Assembly (NCBI RefSeq): GCF_054482525.1
Contig: NZ_CM137006.1
Strand: one strand, 5' to 3'
Length of the DNA: 64,000 bases
The translations under genes and the position numbers were made by a program. Below the pieces are notes generated by a model. It had not been told where the DNA came from and did no database searches. It worked only from the letters and a program-made list of their open reading frames with translations. Positions 7,015 through 61,993 of the stretch are shown here, in pieces. Numbering within the stretch: the stretch's first letter is position 1; every line of letters starts with the position of its first letter.

Positions 7015-7785
<771 letters not shown>

Positions 7786-10275: not shown

Positions 10276-10539
10276 ATGCGTTTAGTGAAGCCAGTAATGA
10301 AGAAACCGCTCCGTCAGCAAAACCGCCAGATTATTAGCTATATCCCACGCACGGAACCCGCGCCGCCAGAACATGCGATAAAGATGGATTCGTTTCGTGA
10401 TGTCTGGATGCTGCGTGGCAAATATGTTGCGTTTGTACTGATGGGAGAGTCATTTCTGCGCTCACCGGCGTTTACTGTGCCTGAATCCGCCCAGCGTTGG
10501 GCAAATCAGATCCGCCAGGAAGGGGAAGTGACTGAGTAA
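10276..10539 (+). CDS. cedA: Cell division modulator CedA (probable true start at internal ATG 10297, 80 aa)
   Basis: ORF matches CedA from MKKPLRQQNRQIISYIPR onward; divergent from katE as expected. Confidence 0.8.
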   Translation: MRLVKPVMKKPLRQQNRQIISYIPRTEPAPPEHAIKMDSFRDVWMLRGKYVAFVLMGESFLRSPAFTVPESAQRWANQIRQEGEVTE

Positions 10540-10814
10540 GGCTTAGGTACCTCCCGGTTGGGCCGGGAGTTACATGACCTGAAATTCTGTATTTCGTTGC
10601 TACATTCATTCAATCCACCTGTAACAAAAAGCTGTCTTTGACGATCTATTGCTATAAATAAGTGATCTTTTTTCTTTAATTGTTTATTTATTTTATAATA
10701 GTTAAGTTTAGCTAATCAGAATGAGCTATTTTTGATAGTTCATCCTGTGGCGTTGCCATTAAACTTATATTGTAAATTGCTTAGATTCAAATGAGATAAT
10801 AATTTTGTTGAAAT

Positions 10815-11630
10815 ATGAGGTGGGAGATGTTTTCTACAAATTTAATACAGAGTGATTATGGTAATTTAAATATTAAAAACCTTGCCTTCGACTCTTTTAA
10901 AGAAAGACTGCAGTCTACCATGACAGCACTCACTTTCTTTATATCAACGGGTCAATGTGCCTGCGATGAAATAGCAGAATCAAACTTCAATTATATGATT
11001 GCCTATATGTCTAACATTAACTATGATGCCTCAAAGCCAGGAGCGCCAGCACTTAGTTTTGATACGTATCTGCAGGACAATGTTAAATATAGAGTGATAA
11101 TTAATAATCTTTATGGTAGTGAAATTAGAATAAGAGGTATTAATGAGAATTTTGTTGGGATGGATTTTACCTGTGAATTCCGACCAGAAAAAATGACCAA
11201 TTTGATCAATATAAAAAACAGGTTGGTTATTCACTATTTAAGAACGATATACTATGAACAAAATTATATACATCCTGTTGGGAGCATTTTTGCTGCGATT
11301 CAAAAAAATGAGAGTCTCCTAAAGTTTCCTTCGGTAATATCAATGCTTAATGTCAATCTTCTTTTTAATCCACTGAATCTTCCGGGAATGGGAAGTGGTG
11401 TGCTTGAAGAGATTATGAGTATTTCAGATAGTTCACTTAGAAAACGTCTTGGGTATGAGGTTTTAAGCTTCTCGCTACAAGCACATTCATTGAGTCAGGA
11501 ATGTATCGATAAGTTAGCCATTTTTTTCGCTGACGATCTGTTTAAATATGAGTCAGTATGCATCGCCGCGATGGAACATTTAAAAAGTAAGGCAACGGCC
11601 CCTATACAAAACGGACCGTTGCCAGCATAA
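10815..11630 (+). CDS. ydjO: Uncharacterized protein YdjO (AT-rich, likely horizontally acquired)
   Basis: 271-aa ORF in expected position between cedA and ydjN; strongly AT-rich coding sequence and upstream region. Confidence 0.7.
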   Translation: MRWEMFSTNLIQSDYGNLNIKNLAFDSFKERLQSTMTALTFFISTGQCACDEIAESNFNYMIAYMSNINYDASKPGAPALSFDTYLQDNVKYRVIINNLYGSEIRIRGINENFVGMDFTCEFRPEKMTNLINIKNRLVIHYLRTIYYEQNYIHPVGSIFAAIQKNESLLKFPSVISMLNVNLLFNPLNLPGMGSGVLEEIMSISDSSLRKRLGYEVLSFSLQAHSLSQECIDKLAIFFADDLFKYESVCIAAMEHLKSKATAPIQNGPLPA

Positions 11631-11633
11631 GAA

Positions 11634-13025
11634 TTAACGGTGTGCCAGTTCGGCGTCGTCTTCGCTATCCAGAATGGCTTTATCGGTTTGCTTCAGCCAC
11701 TGGCTGGTCAGCGTACCAGCGGTCATCGAGCCACTAACGTTTAGCGCCGTACGCCCCATGTCGATAAGCGGTTCAACGGAGATTAACAATGCCACCAGGG
11801 TTACTGGCAGGCCCATCGCAGGCAGCACAATCAGTGCGGCGAAAGTTGCACCACCACCGACACCGGCAACGCCTGCGGAACTAACGGTAACAATACCGAC
11901 CAGCGTCGCAATCCACATCGGGTCCAGCGGGTTAATGCCAACCGTAGGCGCAACCATCACCGCCAACATTGCCGGATACAAACCGGCGCAGCCGTTCTGA
12001 CCAATGGTCGCACCGAAAGAGGCGGCGAAACTGGCGATGGATTCAGGAACACCGAGTCGACGCGTTTGTGCTTCCACATTCAGTGGGATAGACGCAGCAC
12101 TGGAACGGCTGGTAAAGGCAAACGTCAGTACTGGCCATACCTTACGGAAGTACTTCAGCGGGCTCACGCCATTAATGCCCAGCAGAAGGCCATGCACTGC
12201 AAACATAATCAGAAGACCGAGGTAGGACGCGACAACGAAACTTCCCAGTTTGATGATGTCTTGCAGGTTAGAACCTGCAACCACTTTGGTCATCAGCGCC
12301 AGAACGCCGTAAGGGGTCAGCTGCATGACCAGGCGAACCAGTTTCATCACCCAGCTTTGCAGGGTATCGATAGCGGCTAAGACGCGTTCACCTTTCGGCG
12401 CATCATCCTTCAGCAGTTTCAGCGCAGCTACGCCGAGGAATGCGGCAAAAATTACCACGCTGATAATTGACGTCGGATTGGCTCCGGTCAGATCAGCAAA
12501 CGGGTTTTTCGGGATAAAGGACAAGACCAGCTGCGGAACGCTCAGGTCAGAGACTTTACCAACATAGTTACTTTCGATGGCGTTCAAACGTGCAGTTTCT
12601 GCACCACCCTGAACCAGACCTTCAGCCGTCAAACCAAACAGGTTGGTGACCAGCACACCGACCAGCGCCGCAATCAGCGTGGTAAACAAAAGCGTTCCGA
12701 TGGTCAGAAAACTGATTTTGCCTAACTGTGATGCGTTATGCAGACGGGCAACCGCGCTCAGAATAGAGGCGAAGACTAACGGCATAACGATCATTTGCAG
12801 CAGTTGAACATAGCCGTTACCAACAATGTTAAACCACTGTACAGAATCTTTAAGTACCTGGCTGTCAGAACCATAAATGGTATGCAGGGCAAGGCCAAAA
12901 ACCACACCCATCACCAGACCCACCAGCACTTTTTTCGCCAGACTCCACTGTTTATGGCGGGTCTGAGCCAGCGCAAACAGCAGTACAACGAACACCACGA
13001 TGTTCGCAATTAATGGAAAGTTCAT
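11634..13025 (-). CDS. tcyP: L-cystine transporter TcyP (dicarboxylate/amino acid:cation symporter family)
   Basis: 463-aa polytopic membrane ORF (ydjN); recognised sequence. Confidence 0.9.
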
Positions 13026-32531: not shown

Positions 32532-34007
<1,476 letters not shown>

Positions 34008-53200: not shown

Positions 53201-53338
53201 CGTGTAATGGCTGCATGAAATAAACAATAAAATATAAATAACATTATCAGCCTGCCGACGGCTTGAAGAGAGTCACAGTATCTTGTGCAACATTATTGGA
53301 AAGCGTGAGGGGCGAGGTAGCGAAGCGGAAAAATGTTA

Positions 53339-53443
53339 AAAAAAAGCCCATCGTGGGAGATGGGCAAAGACTACACACAGCAATTCGTTGTTTCACTCAG
53401 GGGATTTAAGTCATTGATTGATTTATGGGTATGCGGTTTTTCG
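53339..53443 (-). ncRNA. rprA: sRNA RprA (3' ~69 nt canonical, 5' end divergent)
   Basis: Minus strand 53407->53339 reads AAAUCCCCUGAGUGAAACAACGAAUUGCUGUGUGUAGUCUUUGCCCAUCUCCCACGAUGGGCUUUUUUU (rpoS-pairing region plus terminator); the 5' end coordinate is extrapolated from the expected length. Confidence 0.7.
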
Positions 53444-53472
53444 GCATAAACCAAATTAAGCAAGGCTTGAAA

Positions 53473-54054
53473 ATGGACACACAAATTGCACACATATCGC
53501 ACACAAATAAAAAGGGGTATGTATGGCGCAAGCGTTATGAAAAACGCACGATTGAAATCATCCTACGCACCCGTGATAAATCAATTGCCATAAAAAGAGC
53601 GGCATCAATAACAATTCGCTATATGGAATTAAAATCACTTGACGTTCCATTTAAAGCAATGCTGGAAATGTTAAAAAAGTTTCGTGATGGTCTGATTACG
53701 TCACATGACATTGAGCGCTTAAGGTCGATTGCGATAGCTTCACAGGAAGCTCCACACGCCGCTGTAACCGCTTCGCCTATACAAAGTGTTGGCTATGATG
53801 TCAAAACCGCTCAGAAAGCCGCACAGGGGCATTCCCTTGGCGATGCTCAAAAAGTGTACTTTGGCGCCAACACCGAATGGAAAGAAAAAACCATCAAGGC
53901 TTATTCTGGTTGTATCGACCGCTTTATTTTATGGTGCGCTAATAAAAATATTCATACCGTGGAAGAAATAACGAAAGAGCATGTGATTTCATTTAAATCC
54001 AGCATGGATGAAGAAAAATTAGCCTCCATGACTAAATTTCGCATAATAATATGA
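53473..54054 (+). pseudogene. Tyrosine-recombinase (integrase)-like N-terminal fragment; catalytic domain absent
   Basis: ORF ends after a SAM-like core-binding segment (TIKAYSGCIDRFILWCANKNIHTVEEITKEHVISFKSSMDEEKLASMT); no downstream RHRY catalytic domain; start uncertain (53425/53473). Confidence 0.4.
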
Positions 54055-54362
54055 TTCGGGTTAGCATAACCAATACTTTTATTAAAGCCTATGTATGCAC
54101 CAATTTCTTTATACTTTAACTTAGTGAAATCTGAAATAATACTCAGTGGCTGCAATACGTTATGTCCATTGTGCGCCCCTTCATTAGCGCAAAATCCTGT
54201 ATTTGCAAACTGACCTTTATCACGCCAGATGAATCTATCAACGCCGCCACATACAGGACATGGTGTATGTTCATTTGGTTTAATATCAATTCCAAAATCA
54301 TTCATATGCACCAATGGATTCTTTTTAATATAATTATTCAAATCAGTAAAGAAATTAGCCAT
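53952..54362 (-). pseudogene. Primase N-terminal zinc-ribbon fragment (P4-alpha/T7-gp4-type CPxCGG..C), truncated
   Basis: HTPCPVCGGVDRFIWRDKGQFANTGFCANEGAH zinc-ribbon signature; ORF stops after about 135 aa and overlaps the integrase fragment on the opposite strand. Confidence 0.45.
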
Positions 54363-54681
54363 TATATTTGCTCCCGTATCGCCTTGCTGGATGCTTTGCA
54401 AAGAAATCAACGATATCTTGTTTGCGATACCAGATATAACCGTCTAATTCATGATGAATTTCTTGCGGAAATTCTTTAGGGTTAAAGCGTTTGGCGGCAT
54501 AAAACATTGGTTTAGTAACACCAGATAAAGCAATTGCATCATTGCCACACACAAGCCCTGTAAGTTGCACTTTCTGCGATTGTTCTTTTATCTGTGCCGC
54601 GATTAGCCTTTTATTCTCATTAACGTATTTTTCAATCTGTAGCTTACGCATTTTTTCGCGCATGTAATTTATATCGGTCAT
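54355..54681 (-). CDS. AlpA/excisionase-like DNA-binding protein
   Basis: 108-aa ORF; C-terminal segment TKPMFYAAKRFNPKEFPQEIHHELDGYIWYRKQDIVDFF resembles AlpA-family HTH. Confidence 0.5.
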   Translation of the reverse strand: MTDINYMREKMRKLQIEKYVNENKRLIAAQIKEQSQKVQLTGLVCGNDAIALSGVTKPMFYAAKRFNPKEFPQEIHHELDGYIWYRKQDIVDFFAKHPARRYGSKYNG

Positions 54682-54697
54682 TTTAGTATCCTATATA

Positions 54698-56200
54698 TTA
54701 AGTCATTATCTGTGCTGGTGGGGTAATGATATGAATTATCCCTCGATTATTCATAATGAATCTACATCGTTCAAGCCCTGTAATTGCTCGCTTTATATTA
54801 TTTGGCTGCATTTTATACTCAGTTTTTAATGCCTTCGTTAAATCGGATTCATGTACACAGCCATCAGCACTAAATTCCATTAACTGTATTATCATTTCTA
54901 AAACTCGTTCTTGTGCTGGTGCATTTTTCTTTTTTAACTCGCTCATATATGAGTCGTAAGCGAGAGTATTATTACGCGCAGCATTTTGAGTAAAATTAAC
55001 TCCTGCTTCATATGATTCTGCATTTACAGCGTTTTGCATTAATTGCTTATTTTGCTGTTGCGTTGTTAGTGGTTGCCGCTGTTGCGTGTGCATTTGCGCA
55101 TAATCATTTATCGGTGATTGCTGCATGATAAATGGTTCATCATTAGCTTGTTTGCGTTCTATTTTTCCTGCTGCAATTACTGGAGTTGGCCTATCAATAA
55201 ATACCAACGTCTTAGTATTGGCGTTTACCTGATAACCTTTTGCATTTTCTTCGGGATAATCGCATAATTCATTATTAATATCATGTAATTCACAGACGGT
55301 AATTCCGTTATCCGCTGTGCATAAATCAAATTGCATCACTGGTAATTTTGCAGCGCTACGGTTTTTTTCGATAGTGAGTGATACGGATAACCCAAAATCA
55401 TTACCCTGCATTTGCTCTAGTTTAATGACTGTATCAGAGTCATTTTTAAGGGTAATGGCTCCTTTCATACCTTTAGCCGCATCTTTGCCGCCGTGGTGAA
55501 CCATCAAGACAAAAGAATTTGTTTCTACTGCAATTCTTTTCAAAATCGAAATCAGCTTACGCATTGCAATAGCATCATTTTCATCAGGATTTTCCATATC
55601 CAAAATGGTTTTTCCATCAATGCTTTTTTTTGTGTAGTATGCCAAAAATGAAGAAAGCGTATCAAAACAAATGATGCCGCCTTTGTTATTGGTGATTTTA
55701 TTTACATCATTTATTATTCGATTCTGTATTTCTTTATCAAATAAGTTTATTTGTGGTGACAAGATGTGCATTCTGTCATTTTTAACGCCACTATTAAACT
55801 TATTAGACCACGCTGTATTTCGATCTTTGATTTCAACGCCTGTTTCACCATCAAAATAAAAAGCATGGCATTCTTTAGCAACTCGCAAACCAGCCCACGG
55901 TTTACCCTGTGCAACTCTGTTTAAAAGAGATAATGCCGCAAATGATTTGCCTGTGTTGGATTCACCATAAAGGAAGCCGACCTGTTTTCGGTTAAATAGA
56001 TTTTCAATTACAGGGCGTAACCGCTTTTCTGATTGCAATTGAATTTCAGCTAATTCAATTGCACACAATTCATCATTTATACCATCATATTCAGACCACT
56101 CACCGTAGTTGGCGGGTGCGTAATAATCAATCGCGAGAGTGTAATAATAATCAGGAATAGCAGACCAATCAATAAACATTCCTGTGCACATATCATTCAC
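54698..56200 (-). CDS. RepA-like/RecA-fold P-loop ATPase (replicative helicase-type) with C-terminal putative winged-helix domain
   Basis: 500-aa ORF; Walker A GESNTGKS, Walker B-like IICFDTLSS, LMVHHGGK; adjacent iteron array. Confidence 0.6.
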   Translation of the reverse strand: MNDMCTGMFIDWSAIPDYYYTLAIDYYAPANYGEWSEYDGINDELCAIELAEIQLQSEKRLRPVIENLFNRKQVGFLYGESNTGKSFAALSLLNRVAQGKPWAGLRVAKECHAFYFDGETGVEIKDRNTAWSNKFNSGVKNDRMHILSPQINLFDKEIQNRIINDVNKITNNKGGIICFDTLSSFLAYYTKKSIDGKTILDMENPDENDAIAMRKLISILKRIAVETNSFVLMVHHGGKDAAKGMKGAITLKNDSDTVIKLEQMQGNDFGLSVSLTIEKNRSAAKLPVMQFDLCTADNGITVCELHDINNELCDYPEENAKGYQVNANTKTLVFIDRPTPVIAAGKIERKQANDEPFIMQQSPINDYAQMHTQQRQPLTTQQQNKQLMQNAVNAESYEAGVNFTQNAARNNTLAYDSYMSELKKKNAPAQERVLEMIIQLMEFSADGCVHESDLTKALKTEYKMQPNNIKRAITGLERCRFIMNNRGIIHIITPPAQIMT

Positions 56201-56247
56201 CGTAATTTGGGTATTTAATTAAGAAAAATTCAATTACTTCTTCTTTT

Positions 56248-56400
56248 TTATATAGATGCTTTGTTTTTTTTGTTTTTATCGCAAGTAACTAAATGCTCTT
56301 TTGGAAATTCTTTAGGGTTAAAACGTTTAGCCATATAAAAAGCGGTTGAGCCAATTTTAGCCAAAAGTTGTGCTTCACGAGGTGTAATTAAGTCGCTCAT
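56248..56400 (-). pseudogene. Second, truncated AlpA-like copy (50 codons)
   Basis: MSDLITPREAQLLAKIGSTAFYMAKRFNPKEFPKE...; DNA about 56305-56340 is an imperfect duplicate of 54473-54510; ends in a poly-T/A tract. Confidence 0.35.
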
Positions 56401-56689
56401 GTAGGGTATCTCTTAGATGTATTCTGAGTGCGGTCATGGTAGGCGAGGGGAGGAATAGCGGCAAGCATTACCGGATATAGTAAGCACTACCAGCTAAAGT
56501 CTAACTAACTGTCAACAGATTGAGGCTAAAACCACTGTATGTAAATTCAATTTTAAAAATTAAAAATCATTCTGGCTTAACTAATTATGCTCAATTTAAA
56601 TTGAATCTGATAATAAAAAGAATCAATAAAATGGATTTAGTGATTTTTAGTTGGACGAAATCGTTCATTTTATGTGCATTGCTCGCTGG

Positions 56690-56925
56690 TGATAATTCAA
56701 CCAATCCATTCAACCTATTCGAATGGGTGGTGAATTTTTGACCGAATTAAATTCACCTGAATATTCACCGAATGATTCACCTGAATCATTCAGCCCTTCA
56801 TTCACCACGAAACCCAGGCGCGGCGGGGCTTACAGGCCGATTCATTCACCTGAATATTCACCTGAATATTCACCTGAATTATTCAACCAAAAATTCACCT
56901 TCATATTCACTCATTCACCTCTCTA
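56690..56925. repeat. Iteron array: at least 9 TTCACC hexamers, including tandem palindromic 12-mers ATTCACCTGAAT
   Basis: TTCACC at 56751, 56763, 56775, 56800, 56844, 56856, 56868, 56893, 56913; three exact tandem 12-mers at 56843-56878. Confidence 0.65.
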
Positions 56926-57236
56926 TAAATAAGCATTGGAATGCTTTTTATAGAGGTTGATGAATGAAGGTCGTTCAAGTGAATGAACTGTGAGTTGGGT
57001 AAACCCCTAGGGGTTGGGGGTGTTGTCGATTTGTGGTAAATTCCTTCTGCCAGCGTGAAAAAGGCGCTGGTGGGGATTTGCAGCCCCAAACAAACAAAAC
57101 CATTGGCAAGGAATTGCCGATGCGCGTGCGCACGTCAGTTATGGCGGTCACGGCGAGGGAGTCGAAAGGCTCGCCAGTTTTGTTTGTTTGCTGGTACTGC
57201 AAACCTCGTCGTGATCGTCACCACGGGGATGCATGT

Positions 57237-57488
57237 ATGCAGGAAACAGACTGGCACAAAGCGGATATTCTTGCCTCTTTAAAGAAAAAGAAAATCAGCA
57301 TGGCGGGATTATCCCGTGAACATGGTTTATCAAGTAGCACGTTGCTAAATGCACTTAGTAGAGAATGGCCTAGAGGCGAATTAATTATTGCTAATGCAAT
57401 TGGTGTGTCACCTCAAGAAATATGGCCTTCTAGGTATTTTGAAAAAGATGGCTCTCCAAAAAATCGTGTGATTCGTAAACCTGTTTAA
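57237..57488 (+). CDS. Ner-like DNA-binding protein (Mu Ner / Nlp family)
   Basis: 83 aa MQETDWHKADILASLKKKKISMAGLSREHGLSSSTLLNALSREWPRGELIIANAIGVSPQEIWPSRY matches the Ner family signature; upstream in-frame extension of track ORF judged non-coding. Confidence 0.7.
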   Translation: MQETDWHKADILASLKKKKISMAGLSREHGLSSSTLLNALSREWPRGELIIANAIGVSPQEIWPSRYFEKDGSPKNRVIRKPV

Positions 57489-57705
57489 ATAAGTCAATGC
57501 GTCTCTGATTAAAAGGGGCGCATTTTTGTTTTTACTGACTTGTTGCAATGTGGGATATGTTGCGCACGTGTGTGCGATAGTTGTTAATTGTTTTTTGTAC
57601 TAGTTAACAAATACGAATTTTCTGAGGGTGCTATTTTGGGTTTTAGCTGCGGCTTCGCCTTGCTGCCCTTCGGGCTGGTGGTGCAAGAAGAATGTTTGAA
57701 AACTT

Positions 57706-57751
57706 CCTTTTCTTTGCTTCACCAGCCCCGTAGGGGCGTGAGCGTAGCGAA
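57706..57751 (+). repeat. 46-bp direct repeat, copy 1 (identical to 61912-61957)
   Basis: ccttttctttgcttcaccagccccgtaggggcgtgagcgtagcgaa; contains hairpin GCCCC-GTA-GGGGC. Confidence 0.85.
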
Positions 57752-57849
57752 CCTAATCACTTTGATTTTGACACATATCGGTTCTATCATTTTCAGGAAA
57801 ATCATCATAGAATTATATAAAACATACGATTTTTAAGGTGAATTTTTAA

Positions 57850-59001
57850 ATGCACGAGAAAGCGCAAACAAAAATAAAAGATACTATTAGAGAAATACTA
57901 ATCACTCCAGCAATCGCTTTTACTGGTCGTGCAGGTCATTTTGATTTTTCATTATATGAAGTTTTAGCAAATGAGCTTAACAAAAGAAAGATAAAGTTTA
58001 AAATTGATAAATTATCATGTTGGATTATTTTTGATGGCGCAAAAAAACATTACTTTCAAGATAAATCAATTACTGACGCACAAGCGATAAATGATTTTGT
58101 GGATACGTTATGTAGTATTTACTGTGAAACACCTATGGATTACTCCATCGATTTTCACTTTAGAAATTTAAAAATCGATATCAACCCGATTGATTATGAG
58201 TTTGTTTCAATTAGAGCGGGTGAGGATATTGGTATTGGTTTGTTCGCTGAAAAAGAAAAGTATGCGATTGCGAGCATTAAAAAGAATGGCTATCTTTCAG
58301 GTGGTTATCCTAGCTCATTTATAAAATCGATTTTGCAAGATTTGAAAATCTTCATTTTTTTGATTAAAAGCATTAATTTGATTAAGACAGGAAAAACCAA
58401 TTTAGCATCCACGTTATTTCAATCGATGTCCGGTCATGCTGACACAATTAAGATTGATTGCGTTAATGTTAAATATCCTTGGATGAATAGCAGTGTCCAT
58501 ATTTCAGAGTCGGTAGGGAAATTTTTACACAACTTTATCTTCAATTATGAATTTGAAGAAGGCTACATTATAGAAAAAATAGATCATTCGCTTCAGCTAA
58601 TGAATGCAATAGTAAAAGATGAGTCAAAAGAAGCCTTGCGTATCAAGGCTGCAATTGATTGGTTGGTGCAATCTGAAATCACTGATGATGAAACCATGTC
58701 TTTTATTCAAATTTGCATGGGGCTTGAATCAATTTTTGGTGATGATGATTATGAGGGTGGCCTAACAAACATACTATCTGATAGATGCGCCTACTTAATA
58801 GGGAATAAAATTAAAGAGAGGAGATTTATAAAGGACACATTTAAAAAAATATATCAAGTTAGGTCAAAGATAGTGCATGGCGTAAGAAATCATTTATCAG
58901 ATGATGAATTATATTTTAGGCATTTAGCATATTCATATTTAGAGCGTTCTATTCTAAAAGAAATTCAAAATTTAGACCTGCAATCCCATCAGGCGACGTG
59001 A
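57850..59001 (+). CDS. Hypothetical 383-aa protein with C-terminal HEPN-like R-x4-H-G motif (candidate Abi-type RNase)
   Basis: Long AT-rich ORF with SD aaggtg 11 nt upstream; RSKIVHG at residues 338-344 (nt 58861-58881) in a helical C-terminal domain. Confidence 0.65.
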   Translation: MHEKAQTKIKDTIREILITPAIAFTGRAGHFDFSLYEVLANELNKRKIKFKIDKLSCWIIFDGAKKHYFQDKSITDAQAINDFVDTLCSIYCETPMDYSIDFHFRNLKIDINPIDYEFVSIRAGEDIGIGLFAEKEKYAIASIKKNGYLSGGYPSSFIKSILQDLKIFIFLIKSINLIKTGKTNLASTLFQSMSGHADTIKIDCVNVKYPWMNSSVHISESVGKFLHNFIFNYEFEEGYIIEKIDHSLQLMNAIVKDESKEALRIKAAIDWLVQSEITDDETMSFIQICMGLESIFGDDDYEGGLTNILSDRCAYLIGNKIKERRFIKDTFKKIYQVRSKIVHGVRNHLSDDELYFRHLAYSYLERSILKEIQNLDLQSHQAT

Positions 59002-59288
59002 AGCTTGTGCGCTTCATTATGGGGCTAGCCGCCATCAGGCAAGGCGATTGCATGTCTTTGCGCTTCGTCGCCTCCTGATGCGTTCTGTGAAGATGTCGAT
59101 CATTTAGTGAGCGCGGCGGATGTTGCTGATGGATAGTGTGGATGCAACTGAACCATACCGCGAAAAGTGGCAGGATTGCGCCGGAATCGTACCGCTAGCA
59201 GGTGTTGAGTGTAAGAAGTAGTGATTGGGTGAAATGAAGATAGAAGGCCGCATAGAGGCATACAACTAGCCTTATGCGGTTGGCTGGT

Positions 59289-59732
59289 TCAGCACTGGTA
59301 AAAGTTGGCGAGGTGTGGAATATGGCTGGTGGTGGTTTCGAAAGCCTTGAGGCGTCCATTTTTATCTTTTTTCAAGTAGAGCATTTTTAGTGCTGGTGGA
59401 AATACTGAATCCATAATTCCATAAACTCCCACATTTTCGTTTTCTTCTTTAAGCATTCCCCAATATTGATAACCATTTAATGCGCTATCATCAATGCCCG
59501 TTCCAACGCGCTTAATGTGGGCAAGATATCGGCCTTTTATCGTAAAGCTAAATGATTCATCACGTTCATTTGTGCAAGTGTAAAATCCATCATCGCTTTC
59601 ATTTATAACTTCAGATGCTTCACGATTTAATGAGTACTTGTCTAAGTTGTTTATGATGTCACTTCGCTGTGCGCATCCAGTCAAATTTAGAATGGTAAAA
59701 ATTAGTACAGAAGATGCAAGATATTTGTTCAT
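59289..59732 (-). CDS. Hypothetical lipoprotein (147 aa)
   Basis: MNKYLASSVLIFTILNLTGC signal peptide plus lipobox; start at internal ATG 59732. Confidence 0.6.
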   Translation of the reverse strand: MNKYLASSVLIFTILNLTGCAQRSDIINNLDKYSLNREASEVINESDDGFYTCTNERDESFSFTIKGRYLAHIKRVGTGIDDSALNGYQYWGMLKEENENVGVYGIMDSVFPPALKMLYLKKDKNGRLKAFETTTSHIPHLANFYQC

Positions 59733-59818
59733 TTTGATTATCCATATGAAAAGCAAGGTACTTAGATTAAATTACCCTGCTTAAGCAGTAATTAGCGGTT
59801 CCGTTAATAGAGGGTAGA

Positions 59819-60178
59819 TTATTTGTTAATTTGTTTTTTAGTGTGTGAGATAAAATTTCTAAGTAAATCTTTTTCAATTACAATTTCACATTTTAGGTTT
59901 TGGCTATCGACCGCATCAATTCTATCAAACCAAAACATTAATTCCTGGCTTGCATCGCATTTACGTTTGAATTTAATTGCCCTGCCGAATTTTTCACTTA
60001 AAGAATCATCATCACATAAAAAATAAATTTTATTATTAATGGTGATTTGAATTAAATATGTCTTCCTCGTTAGGTAATCTAACCTTTCGTTAGCTTTCAG
60101 TAAGTTAGCTTCAGCTTGTTTGATGCGTATAAGAGCATCCTCTTTGCTTAAAGGGGATGTATTGACAGACTTGATCAT
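59819..60178 (-). CDS. Hypothetical protein (119 aa), upstream partner of the lipoprotein gene
   Basis: ORF co-oriented with and 62 bp upstream of the lipoprotein gene; no recognisable family. Confidence 0.5.
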   Translation of the reverse strand: MIKSVNTSPLSKEDALIRIKQAEANLLKANERLDYLTRKTYLIQITINNKIYFLCDDDSLSEKFGRAIKFKRKCDASQELMFWFDRIDAVDSQNLKCEIVIEKDLLRNFISHTKKQINK

Positions 60179-60287
60179 AATTTAATCCTTTGGTTAAGAT
60201 TCATCAAAAATATGCCATAAATAGCCTTGAAGGTTGTGTGGAATACATATTATGATAGCTTCATCTAATCAGCAAGGGGAATAATAG

Positions 60288-60443
60288 ATGCCTTCTAAAC
60301 GTGTTATATGCTCACTTGATGAGCAAGAGTTAGATATTCTCGAAAAATATAAATTACATTATAAAAATATGCATGGCGTAAAATTAAACAGAACGGCAAT
60401 TATCAAAATGTTGATTAGTCGTCTATCAAAAGAAATTCAATAA
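60288..60443 (+). CDS. Small putative ribbon-helix-helix (CopG/Arc-like) regulator, 51 aa
   Basis: MPSKRVICSLDEQELDILEKYKLHYKNMHGVKLNRTAIIKMLISRLSKEIQ: beta-strand then two helices pattern; divergent from the minus-strand pair; below ORF-track cutoff, found by own reading. Confidence 0.45.
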   Translation: MPSKRVICSLDEQELDILEKYKLHYKNMHGVKLNRTAIIKMLISRLSKEIQ

Positions 60444-60495
60444 TAATTCTAATTACCAATTAATTTAAACTTCACATAATTAAAGAGGCAACTCT

Positions 60496-60810
60496 ATGCA
60501 CACTCTTTTTTCTAAATTTAAAAACAGGAAAATTAAAATGTATCAACCACGTTATAAAAGCAGAATGATTGACGATAATGAATATAATCAGGTGCTTCAA
60601 TCGAGAATGCAAAATCTTTTAAATCAATATAATAATGAGGTTTCAAACTTAACCCGCATTGGTGTTACAAATTTGGGTTTCGGCCGATGGGATAATGGAG
60701 AGAGCAAAATCAATAACCACGTTAATAAAGTAAGTGAGACTTTGGAAAAGATGCAATCTACGCAAGCCTTGATTGATGCTCTTGCAAATGAAATTACACA
60801 AACTAATTAA
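60496..60810 (+). CDS. Hypothetical small protein A (104 aa)
   Basis: ORF with SD aaagagg 8 nt upstream; AT-rich. Confidence 0.5.
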   Translation: MHTLFSKFKNRKIKMYQPRYKSRMIDDNEYNQVLQSRMQNLLNQYNNEVSNLTRIGVTNLGFGRWDNGESKINNHVNKVSETLEKMQSTQALIDALANEITQTN

Positions 60811-60894
60811 TCGAATGGGGGATGCTTTAAATGGTAATCGCAATCATGGTTGTAATGTTTTGGGCTTTCCTGATTCTTAAAGAGGAAATGAAAT

Positions 60895-61179
60895 ATGGTT
60901 AAATTTGGAGTGTTTTACCATCATGCATGGGGTGATGGTAAAAAGGAAATCCCGCCACCTGATTTAAATTACATCCGAACCGATCCACATAAAAATAATG
61001 AAATTGCTTTAGATGTTTTTGATTCAAGAATGGACGCACAAAAACGCGCTGATTTACTAAATTCACGCATGGCAAAAAATCAAACTGGTCAGCATTATGT
61101 TGCGCCAACAACGCAAGAAACCAAAACGGCTCAAAAGCGCTTTAAGTTTCCTTGTACTAGCATTTATGGGTGGAAATGA
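60895..61179 (+). CDS. Hypothetical small protein B (94 aa)
   Basis: ORF with SD aagagga; N-terminus KFGVFYHHAWGDGKKEIPPPD resembles that of protein C. Confidence 0.5.
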   Translation: MVKFGVFYHHAWGDGKKEIPPPDLNYIRTDPHKNNEIALDVFDSRMDAQKRADLLNSRMAKNQTGQHYVAPTTQETKTAQKRFKFPCTSIYGWK

Positions 61180-61181
61180 AA

Positions 61182-61556
61182 ATGAGTAAACAATTCGGTG
61201 TTTTCTTTTGGCGAAAAGGTGACGCTATTACCGATATCCCGTCAGATAAAAATGTTGCAAATCGCGGAGTAAAGCCTAAGCGCATTTTTTCAGATTATAT
61301 TGATGGAATGCGATATAAAGATAAAATGAATGCAACAATTCCAGCGGCGCAAAAAGGTAAATATGAATATGTATTAGCGGAAATTGTTGAACCAGACCCG
61401 AACAATACAAAGGTGTTGTTTAAATCTGGAAATTTAACAGAAGCATTAAGGGCGAAGCGACAAACAACCGAACAAATCAACCGAAATAAAATTGATGCAA
61501 TGATTAAAGAAGCCGCACACGATTACCTTTACACTATTACAGGAATGGAAAAATGA
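61182..61556 (+). CDS. Hypothetical small protein C (about 125 aa; start at ATG 61182 or 61176)
   Basis: QFGVFFWRKGDAITDIPSDKN N-terminus paralogous to B; abuts stop of B. Confidence 0.5.
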   Translation: MSKQFGVFFWRKGDAITDIPSDKNVANRGVKPKRIFSDYIDGMRYKDKMNATIPAAQKGKYEYVLAEIVEPDPNNTKVLFKSGNLTEALRAKRQTTEQINRNKIDAMIKEAAHDYLYTITGMEK

Positions 61557-61852
61557 TTATTGACGAGCGATTTATTAAATGGTCAATGGTGCTGGTGGAG
61601 GCCGGAAAGCCATCACCCAGCCTCGCGGGGCTTTATAAAGGAAACACTAAAGGATTAATCTTTTATAAAACACGTGAATTGGCATCAAATGCAGCCACTA
61701 AACGGAATGAGCAATTAGCAGGAACTAAATCAACCAGCCGATTTAAAATCATTAAATTGCATGACGCAGAAGCACAACAGAAACATGATTTTCAGTTAAA
61801 ACAGGAACGCCAGCGCCGCGATGCACGCCATATGCGCCGATTTGGTTTCTAA
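61553..61852 (+). CDS. Hypothetical small protein D (99 aa), basic C-terminus
   Basis: Start ATG overlaps stop of C (ATGA), indicating translational coupling. Confidence 0.5.
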   Translation: MIIDERFIKWSMVLVEAGKPSPSLAGLYKGNTKGLIFYKTRELASNAATKRNEQLAGTKSTSRFKIIKLHDAEAQQKHDFQLKQERQRRDARHMRRFGF

Positions 61853-61911
61853 ATATAACTCAATAACTCAACCAATGGTGATGTTAAAGAATAAGGTGGC
61901 CTTAAATTTCA

Positions 61912-61957
61912 CCTTTTCTTTGCTTCACCAGCCCCGTAGGGGCGTGAGCGTAGCGAA
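61912..61957 (+). repeat. 46-bp direct repeat, copy 2 (identical to 57706-57751)
   Basis: Same 46-mer, 37 bp upstream of the tape-measure-like ORF. Confidence 0.85.
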
Positions 61958-61993
61958 ATAAGTAACATTAATATCAAATCAGAGGTAAATAAA

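Follow-up and report, generated by a model that had tools for sequence, protein, structure and literature searches.

How did ydjO, a gene far richer in AT than the genes around it, come to lie between cedA and tcyP, two convergent genes, and is it kept silent there by H-NS? We analysed this locus within a stretch of 64,000 nucleotides (hereafter the window) and compared it with other genomes of Escherichia and with outgroups.

Base composition and layout of the ydjO locus

Positions 10540-11633 of the window are identical (100%) to the record of E. coli SCU-102, the annotation of which gives the following layout.

Left end: chbG, followed by katE (minus strand)
10276-10539, plus strand: cedA
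10817-10820, plus strand: GAGG, Shine-Dalgarno sequence of ydjO
10827-11630, plus strand: ydjO coding sequence, 267 aa (as annotated by RefSeq in the identical record)
11634-13025, minus strand: tcyP
Right end: ydjM

The encoded protein is 94% identical in amino acids to YdjO of K-12 (b1730) over 267 aa, and the gene order is the same. The first-pass annotation had taken katE as the left neighbour of ydjO. The gene which adjoins ydjO is cedA, as 10276-10539 matches the Pfam family CedA with an E-value of 1e-45, and katE lies farther left. The start of ydjO had been placed at ATG 10815, which is not preceded by a Shine-Dalgarno sequence, whereas the supported start, ATG 10827, is the RefSeq start and has GAGG 6 nt upstream.

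Positions 10580-10814 and ydjO had also been described as much more AT-rich than katE and tcyP, and calculation bears this out. GC content is 0.268 in 10580-10814, upstream of ydjO, and 0.355 in the ydjO open reading frame (10815-11630), giving 0.336 over the full interval 10580-11630, as compared to 0.503 in chbG, 0.519 in katE, 0.515 in cedA, 0.529 in tcyP and 0.504 in ydjM. GC at codon positions 1, 2 and 3 of ydjO is 0.40, 0.34 and 0.33, the third-position value standing against 0.52-0.58 in the neighbours, and the FYMINK fraction of YdjO is 0.38 versus 0.21-0.26 in the compared proteins. A uniform base composition is ruled out by the sliding-window calculation, in which GC falls from 0.52 at 10400-10600 to 0.275-0.285 at 10600-10900, stays at 0.30-0.39 across ydjO and reaches 0.53-0.60 inside tcyP. 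The drop starts near 10575, just past a GC-rich hairpin at 10551-10569. The 1051-bp interval belongs to the lowest 2.1% of equal-sized stretches of the window (mean 0.468, SD 0.058), and the trough ranks third-deepest within it. The deeper troughs of the window are located inside a prophage-like island at 53-64 kb.

The cedA-tcyP junction and the history of the islet

A scan with CedA as query and one genome per bacterial species yielded 54 loci, 48 of them outside Escherichia. In 43 of these 48, including Citrobacter, Salmonella, Enterobacter, Kluyvera, Leclercia and Atlantibacter, cedA and tcyP are convergent and only 53-115 bp apart; the spacing is 143-357 bp in four others and 911 bp in one (Siccibacter). 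YdjO-like coding potential was found in none of the 48. The compact junction is also present in E. whittamii, in Escherichia sp. E1V33 and in two records filed as E. coli which, with a CedA identity of only 90%, probably represent cryptic-clade species.

The same junction is common within E. coli itself. Among 5426 complete E. coli genomes, 4264 carry the ydjO islet and 1124 (~21%) a compact junction of 46 bp, as seen in strains CFT073, R10 and A4. The islet-free genomes include CFT073, a classic phylogroup B2 strain, and strains of serotypes O25:H4 and O18, which we take to be phylogroup B2 as well (phylogroup being assigned here by serotype). The spacer of the compact junction is a bidirectional terminator, AAAAAACGCCTGTCGGGATGACAGGCGTTTT, with a fold z-score of -5.1. 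Taken over about 45 other Enterobacteriaceae, several non-coli Escherichia lineages and CFT073-type E. coli, compact spacers of 46-110 bp bear one such terminator for both genes. Alignments with islet-free genomes define the inserted segment and the elements at its two ends.

About 10522-11632: inserted islet of ~1.1 kb, as delimited by alignment to the islet-free E. coli strains R10, A4 and CFT073, to E. whittamii and to others
10522-10539, plus strand: islet-type 3' end of cedA, ...QEGEVTE-stop (ancestral type, ...QENEVEE-stop)
10551-10569, plus strand: GC-rich 8-bp hairpin after the cedA stop codon, no U-tract, -25.6 kcal/mol in an 81-nt context, z = -2.3
11591-11623, minus strand: 11-bp hairpin (inverted repeat I6) followed by the U-rich tail UUACUUUUUAAAU, inside the last 13 codons of ydjO

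The islet stands in place of 68 bp, which comprise the last 6 codons of cedA, the bidirectional terminator and a short spacer. These comparisons show that the compact junction is ancestral and the ydjO islet inserted, because outgroups and part of E. coli keep the same ydjO-free junction. The first-pass annotation had regarded ydjO as an acquired gene, and this reading is upheld by the intact empty site in outgroups and in ~21% of E. coli and by the lack of any YdjO homologue outside Escherichia. Conservation across Enterobacteriaceae is thus ruled out by comparative presence and absence, the ydjO-containing islet being confined to Escherichia, AT-rich and variably present. Neither terminal direct nor inverted repeats were found at its junctions, and it contains no integrase, transposase or other mobility genes. 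Islet-bearing and islet-free haplotypes differ to an ordinary extent, by 1-3 positions per 100 bp, as far as both junctions, and the idea that recombination had left diverged, imported flanks was therefore rejected.

Insertion of the islet has consequences for both neighbours, as the ancestral shared terminator of cedA and tcyP is absent from the islet-bearing locus. On the cedA side, the hairpin at 10551-10569 is conserved in the three aligned E. coli alleles (window, K-12 and L006) while E. albertii has a different one; judged from its structure it may at best be a weak terminator or an RNA-stabilising stem. On the tcyP side, the hairpin at 11591-11623 closely follows the tcyP stop codon, and its position and U-rich tail suggest that it is likely the tcyP terminator. 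In a serum transcriptome of extraintestinal pathogenic E. coli (ExPEC), ydjO was listed beside ydjN (tcyP) and genes of the CysB regulon. It could be speculated that this listing reflects read-through from tcyP antisense to ydjO rather than co-regulation.

The islet has been damaged or replaced in several strains. Escherichia sp. MOD1-EC7003 carries an 892-bp deletion, which leaves the last 32 codons of ydjO and runs exactly between the two copies of a direct repeat.

10639-10650, plus strand: left copy of the direct repeat TGACGATCT(A/G)TT (repeat family D8)
11531-11542, plus strand: right copy of the same repeat

In strain HH45 a 130-bp replacement sequence, unique to that genome, occupies the locus; it was rejected as the typical ydjO-less state, the common islet-free form being the 46-bp junction. 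IS1 is present within the locus in ET915 and AH65, and interruptions of ydjO by IS10 and other insertion sequences have been described in the literature. The gene is dispensable, and insertion sequences target the AT-rich DNA.

When the outgroup loci were searched with tblastn, E. albertii proved to have a divergent homologue immediately 3' of cedA. The full-length protein (P0068, 257 aa, 125 cluster members) was recovered by profile search with E = 7e-86, and the gene order is chbG-cedA-[gene]-tcyP. YdjO is only 33-36% identical between E. albertii and E. coli, as compared to 92% for CedA and 98% for TcyP. The E. albertii islet is equally AT-rich (GC 0.32-0.34), its cedA has the islet-type end (EGEVAE-stop), and the orthologous GGCAACGGCCC... 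hairpin is found at the same place in the last codons. The islet is thus old and its acquisition not recent, because its orthologue in E. albertii, just as AT-rich, occupies the same site. As GC has not drifted to the host value despite this age, AT-richness is a maintained state of this DNA and not the signature of a fresh import.

This age raises an alternative, namely that the common ancestor of Escherichia already had the islet and that B2 E. coli, E. whittamii and the other cryptic lineages lost it, with no later gain or spread. E. albertii is usually placed outside the E. coli and cryptic clades, and its islet shares the insertion site, the type of cedA end and the 3' hairpin with that of E. 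coli; independent losses do occur, as seen in the MOD1-EC7003 deletion, the HH45 replacement and the IS insertions. Against this, the islet-free junction has an intact ancestral terminator and cedA end and shows no deletion scar. Since a deletion cannot recreate the ancestral junction, loss would need recombination with an islet-free allele and hence a polymorphism maintained across speciation, and we consider ancestral presence followed by such losses unlikely, though worth weighing. The history of the islet may be either a single gain with recombinational spread or a long-lived presence/absence polymorphism.

The control region upstream of ydjO

Three elements of the region between cedA and ydjO are relevant for its possible regulation.

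10580-10814, plus strand: AT-rich upstream region, GC 0.268
10721-10743: imperfect palindrome ATGAGCTAT-TTTTG-ATAGTTCAT (9-5-9, 8 of 9 positions complementary)
10776-10803, plus strand: counterpart of the sigma-70 'constitutive' ydjO promoter, ATTGCT-16-AATAAT in the window and ATGACT-16-AATAAT in K-12 (PMC3946193)

In K-12, the spacer between cedA and ydjO is one of 78 promoter islands, 1811053_320 (PMC3661553, Table 1), which is bound by H-NS in both the Kahramanoglou (MG1655) and the Oshima (W3110) data sets (column H = 'K') and is linked to a gene that both Nakamura and Lawrence predict to be foreign (PMC3661553). Mapped through NC_000913.3, with an estimated offset of 1977 bp between genome versions, this island corresponds roughly to window 10610-10929 and coincides with the GC minimum. 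Genomic SELEX placed an H-NS site in the K-12 spacer that overlaps the RpoD holoenzyme promoter (PMC3946193), and an RpoS holoenzyme SELEX peak lies inside ydjO (PMC5493296). Purtov et al. 2020 proposed that an excess of promoters together with H-NS silences acquired genes (PMC7054387).

The window allele differs from K-12 in the -35 hexamer, the K-12 allele being 5-7% different. A consensus promoter scan, the algorithm of which differs from that of Panyukov and Ozoline, found 3 sites as compared to 4.1 in composition-matched shuffles, and the high-affinity H-NS motif was not enriched in a scan. These two scans make the case for H-NS binding and silencing neither stronger nor weaker. No report of ydjO expression or derepression in an hns mutant was found in the accessible literature mentioning ydjO. 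Given the binding of H-NS in K-12, we infer that ydjO is silenced by H-NS.

The palindrome is the sole such site in the window. Four E. coli loci, including two from the window strain, and E. albertii share its 20-mer core, ATGAGCTATTTTTGATAGTT, without a change, and the DNA around it is largely unalignable between the upstream regions of the two species. This pattern of conservation makes the palindrome a candidate operator for some regulator.

Taken together, we consider it likely, with good confidence, that the locus is an Escherichia-only insertion of 1.1 kb which carries the orphan gene ydjO, is bound by H-NS upstream in K-12 and is most likely xenogeneically silenced. A segment of 1.1 kb was inserted between convergent cedA and tcyP, displacing their shared bidirectional terminator. 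It carries the GC-rich hairpin, a control region of ~250 bp, very AT-rich and with the palindrome and the sigma-70 promoter, and ydjO itself, the last 13 codons of which hold the hairpin that most likely terminates tcyP now. H-NS would nucleate on the AT-rich upstream DNA and spread over the promoter, keeping ydjO off under laboratory conditions, and expression would need an anti-silencing signal that possibly acts at the conserved palindrome.

YdjO, its evolution and comparison with known systems

ydjO is a real gene, fast-evolving under purifying selection. Its dN/dS (Nei-Gojobori) is 0.15-0.27 as compared to 0.01-0.09 in the flanks, and its dS is 0.18 as compared to 0.03-0.11. Between the window and K-12, dN/dS is 0.15, with 26 synonymous and 17 non-synonymous differences, as compared to 0.02-0.09 for flanking genes, and the islet is more polymorphic than its surroundings.

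Identity of window and K-12, cedA-ydjO spacer: 93.0%
Identity of window and K-12, ydjO: 94.7%
Identity of window and K-12, flanking genes: 96.7-99.2%, except chbG (91.9%)

Divergence is deeper still in a rare mosaic E. coli allele (P0005, locus L006), whose first 165 codons have a dS of 0.87 and a dN of 0.16 (ratio 0.19) while the last 100 codons are nearly identical. Although YdjO is only 33% identical between them, E. coli and E. albertii both retain an uninterrupted frame of 257-267 codons. An intact coding sequence is annotated in all islet-bearing complete genomes sampled, bar the two IS1 cases; a 260-aa variant without the last seven codons is found in two sampled complete genomes. Decay by frameshift at the A7 run (11302-11308) was rejected: the A8 form, which stands for 2273 clustered protein sequences, traces to a short-read assembly and occurs in no complete genome. 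Purifying selection implies that ydjO is expressed and useful under some condition.

YdjO is an acidic protein of 267 aa and 30 kDa (pI 5.6) with no evident membrane segment or signal peptide, and is predicted to be soluble. Outside E. coli/Shigella, a word-indexed search of 5.8 billion proteins found no homologue, and phmmer, run exhaustively on 1.84 billion representatives, likewise found sequences and fragments only there; the later profile search added E. albertii as the only further relative, with none outside Escherichia. A candidate distant homologue (P0034, 26% identity) was rejected, as it derives from an E. coli contig in which A and G are swapped (518 A>G and 374 G>A changes and almost nothing else). 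This contig comes from one sequencing run and is an artefact. Paralogy with YahL and YjfZ, which are of similar size, was also rejected, no similarity being seen by BLASTP or hhalign. YdjO had no match in Pfam, PHROG, PADLOC or a PDB sequence search and only a chance match far below the cut-off in NCBIfam, and Rfam gave no match. Two AlphaFold2 runs on shallow alignments gave unusable models with pLDDT values of 44.9 and 46.1, showing at this low confidence helices at the N-terminus, a sheet of four strands and, in the C-terminal third, helices again. With these low-pLDDT models as query, Foldseek found nothing in the PDB below E = 0.04, and TM-scores were under 0.2. The biochemical role of YdjO cannot be read from its sequence or predicted structure.

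It seems rather doubtful, though conceivable, that ydjO is a regulated, fast-evolving and recombining Escherichia-specific locus rather than silent baggage. Diverged alleles (P0005, and E. albertii at 33% identity) are under purifying selection and share the operator-like core of the palindrome. If this were true, a host, a competitor or a phage would be the partner of YdjO in an evolving interaction, and ydjO would be under a dedicated regulator and would have been discarded by the B2 extraintestinal lineages.

A further possibility is that low GC is no foreign signature and reflects mutational bias towards AT in a young, fast-evolving gene under weak constraint and in its spacer. The rate of YdjO evolution, more than ten times that of its neighbours (33% versus 92-98% identity to E. 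albertii), and its raised dS would fit this, as would the fact that no search of proteins, phages or plasmids found a donor. However, outgroups have ~50 bp where the islet has 1.1 kb, so that this DNA came from somewhere; codon positions 1 and 2 and the amino acid composition are AT-shifted as well, and a dN/dS far below 1 speaks against free drift. We regard AT bias as an improbable explanation of the composition.

It is very improbable that ydjO is a spurious or decaying reading frame and that only the DNA matters, for instance as a spacer or a terminator cassette. The lack of a domain, the poor structure models, the absence of ydjO in 21% of genomes, IS insertions in several strains and the many truncated protein fragments in databases would be expected of such a frame. 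The dN/dS of 0.15-0.27, including 0.19 over the diverged N-terminal half, the frame kept in both species, the intact coding sequences of sampled complete genomes and the restriction of the A8 frameshift to a short-read assembly speak against it. That the islet is what remains of a mobile element (insertion sequence, prophage or integrative island) is hardly credible: it is AT-rich, lineage-restricted and variably present, but has no integrase, transposase or terminal repeats, the flanks have no annotated tRNA gene, no PHROG or PADLOC match and no phage copy was found, and three 'plasmid' matches proved to be mislabelled chromosomes of 4.8-4.9 Mb.

The preferred reading, an inserted and silenced islet, is a textbook kind of case. 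Silencing of horizontally acquired AT-rich genes by H-NS is known from the Navarre, Lucchini, Oshima and Grainger data sets. ydjO resembles such genes in its GC deficit of 15-25 points, in its absence from sister lineages and in the published H-NS occupancy over the K-12 ydjO promoter and 5' end (PMC3946193). Unlike typical H-NS-silenced islands, it forms a single-gene islet, has no mobility genes, is old and is under purifying selection. An AT-rich, H-NS-bound ydjO is already published for K-12, whose counterpart is itself listed among the promoter islands (Panyukov and Ozoline 2013, PMC3661553; Purtov et al. 2020, PMC7054387). In comparison to that entry, the window allele is 93% identical in the spacer, has another -35 hexamer and shows no excess of promoter sites in a simple scan. 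What our analysis adds is incremental: the ancestral junction, the ~21% absence, the E. albertii orthologue and purifying selection, together with deep allelic divergence, the conserved upstream palindrome and the (likely) embedded terminator. The locus is also a clean example of an orphan gene slotted between convergent genes and swapping their shared terminator for hairpins of its own.

YahL, YdjO and YjfZ have been described as 'conserved signature proteins' of E. coli/Shigella, and ydjO has been proposed as an exclusive and conserved qPCR marker for water testing, although its assay had a lower detection rate (93%) and a weaker correlation with plate counts (PMC11057252). Our results agree with this claim in that no YdjO homologue occurs outside Escherichia. 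They differ from it in that ydjO is not universal, being absent from 1124 of 5426 complete E. coli genomes, and not exclusive, as E. albertii has an orthologue that is 33-36% identical. The absence of ydjO from ~21% of E. coli, among them CFT073 and O25:H4 strains, the major extraintestinal pathogenic lineages, corrects the marker claim, and strains without ydjO may explain both the 93% detection and the weaker plate-count correlation of the assay.

The palindrome upstream of ydjO and variation within the gene

Two short sequence features, in coordinates of the window, are considered for ydjO (10827-11630, + strand):
10721-10743, upstream of ydjO, imperfect palindrome of 23 bp, ATGAGCTAT-N5-ATAGTTCAT
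11302-11308, within ydjO, A7 run

The 20-nt core of the palindrome is the same in E. coli and E. albertii, despite the fact that ydjO and the E. albertii gene are only 33% identical. The palindrome may represent an operator for some regulator.

Variation within the gene itself is exemplified by a mosaic ydjO allele, which is present in another E. coli genome (GCA_025283635.1; locus L006, 6001-6804). Codons 1-165 of this allele, together with the promoter-proximal DNA, are deeply diverged from the window allele (dS 0.87) while codons 166-267 are near-identical to it. This pattern implies that the diverged part would have been derived from an unsampled ydjO lineage through recombination inside the gene. 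Frameshifted forms, in which the A7 run is replaced by A8 or A6, are seen in protein databases built from short-read assemblies and are absent from complete genomes, and are therefore probably assembly or sequencing errors.

The locus in HH45 and E. albertii

In E. coli HH45 (locus L001, 1079-5219), the ydjO islet is replaced by a GC-rich sequence of 130 bp, for which no match could be found in any other complete E. coli genome. The same locus carries an IS110-family fragment and a truncated katE. In two E. albertii loci (L071 and L072, 3331-3574), katE is not present between chbG and cedA, and these two genes are separated by 244 bp.

Other genes and AT-rich regions of the window

Two further AT-rich regions are located in the window:
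18969-20867, trough with GC of about 0.38-0.39, coinciding with espL1 (annotated type III secretion effector gene) and adjoining thrS
53472-63981, prophage- or satellite-like island with an integrase fragment, a primase-helicase domain gene, an AAA ATPase, a HEPN-domain protein and a tail tape-measure fragment

The island is the most AT-rich region of the window and adjoins the sRNA gene rprA (53335-53455). Divergence of chbG (7027-7785) from K-12 is unusually out of line with its neighbourhood, since it is 91.9% identical to its K-12 counterpart as compared to 96.7-99% for other genes nearby, and is longer by 9 nt. In the window strain, the annotation gives selO (32571-34006) as a pseudogene carrying a frameshift.

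A base-swapped contig and published data sets

The protein P0034, retrieved at 26% identity to YdjO, is a false homologue. Its source, a public Logan contig of the cedA-ydjO-tcyP locus (SRR33321306; L008), has A and G interchanged nearly throughout: relative to K-12, A>G differences number 518 and G>A differences 374. Remote-homology searches can be contaminated by converted-base data sets of this kind.

In published data, ydjO has been listed alongside ydjN/tcyP and CysB-regulon genes in an ExPEC serum transcriptome, and ydjO point mutations have been reported in two long-term evolution lines, which are the only lines retaining hydrogen production (PMC4145685, PMC10997342).
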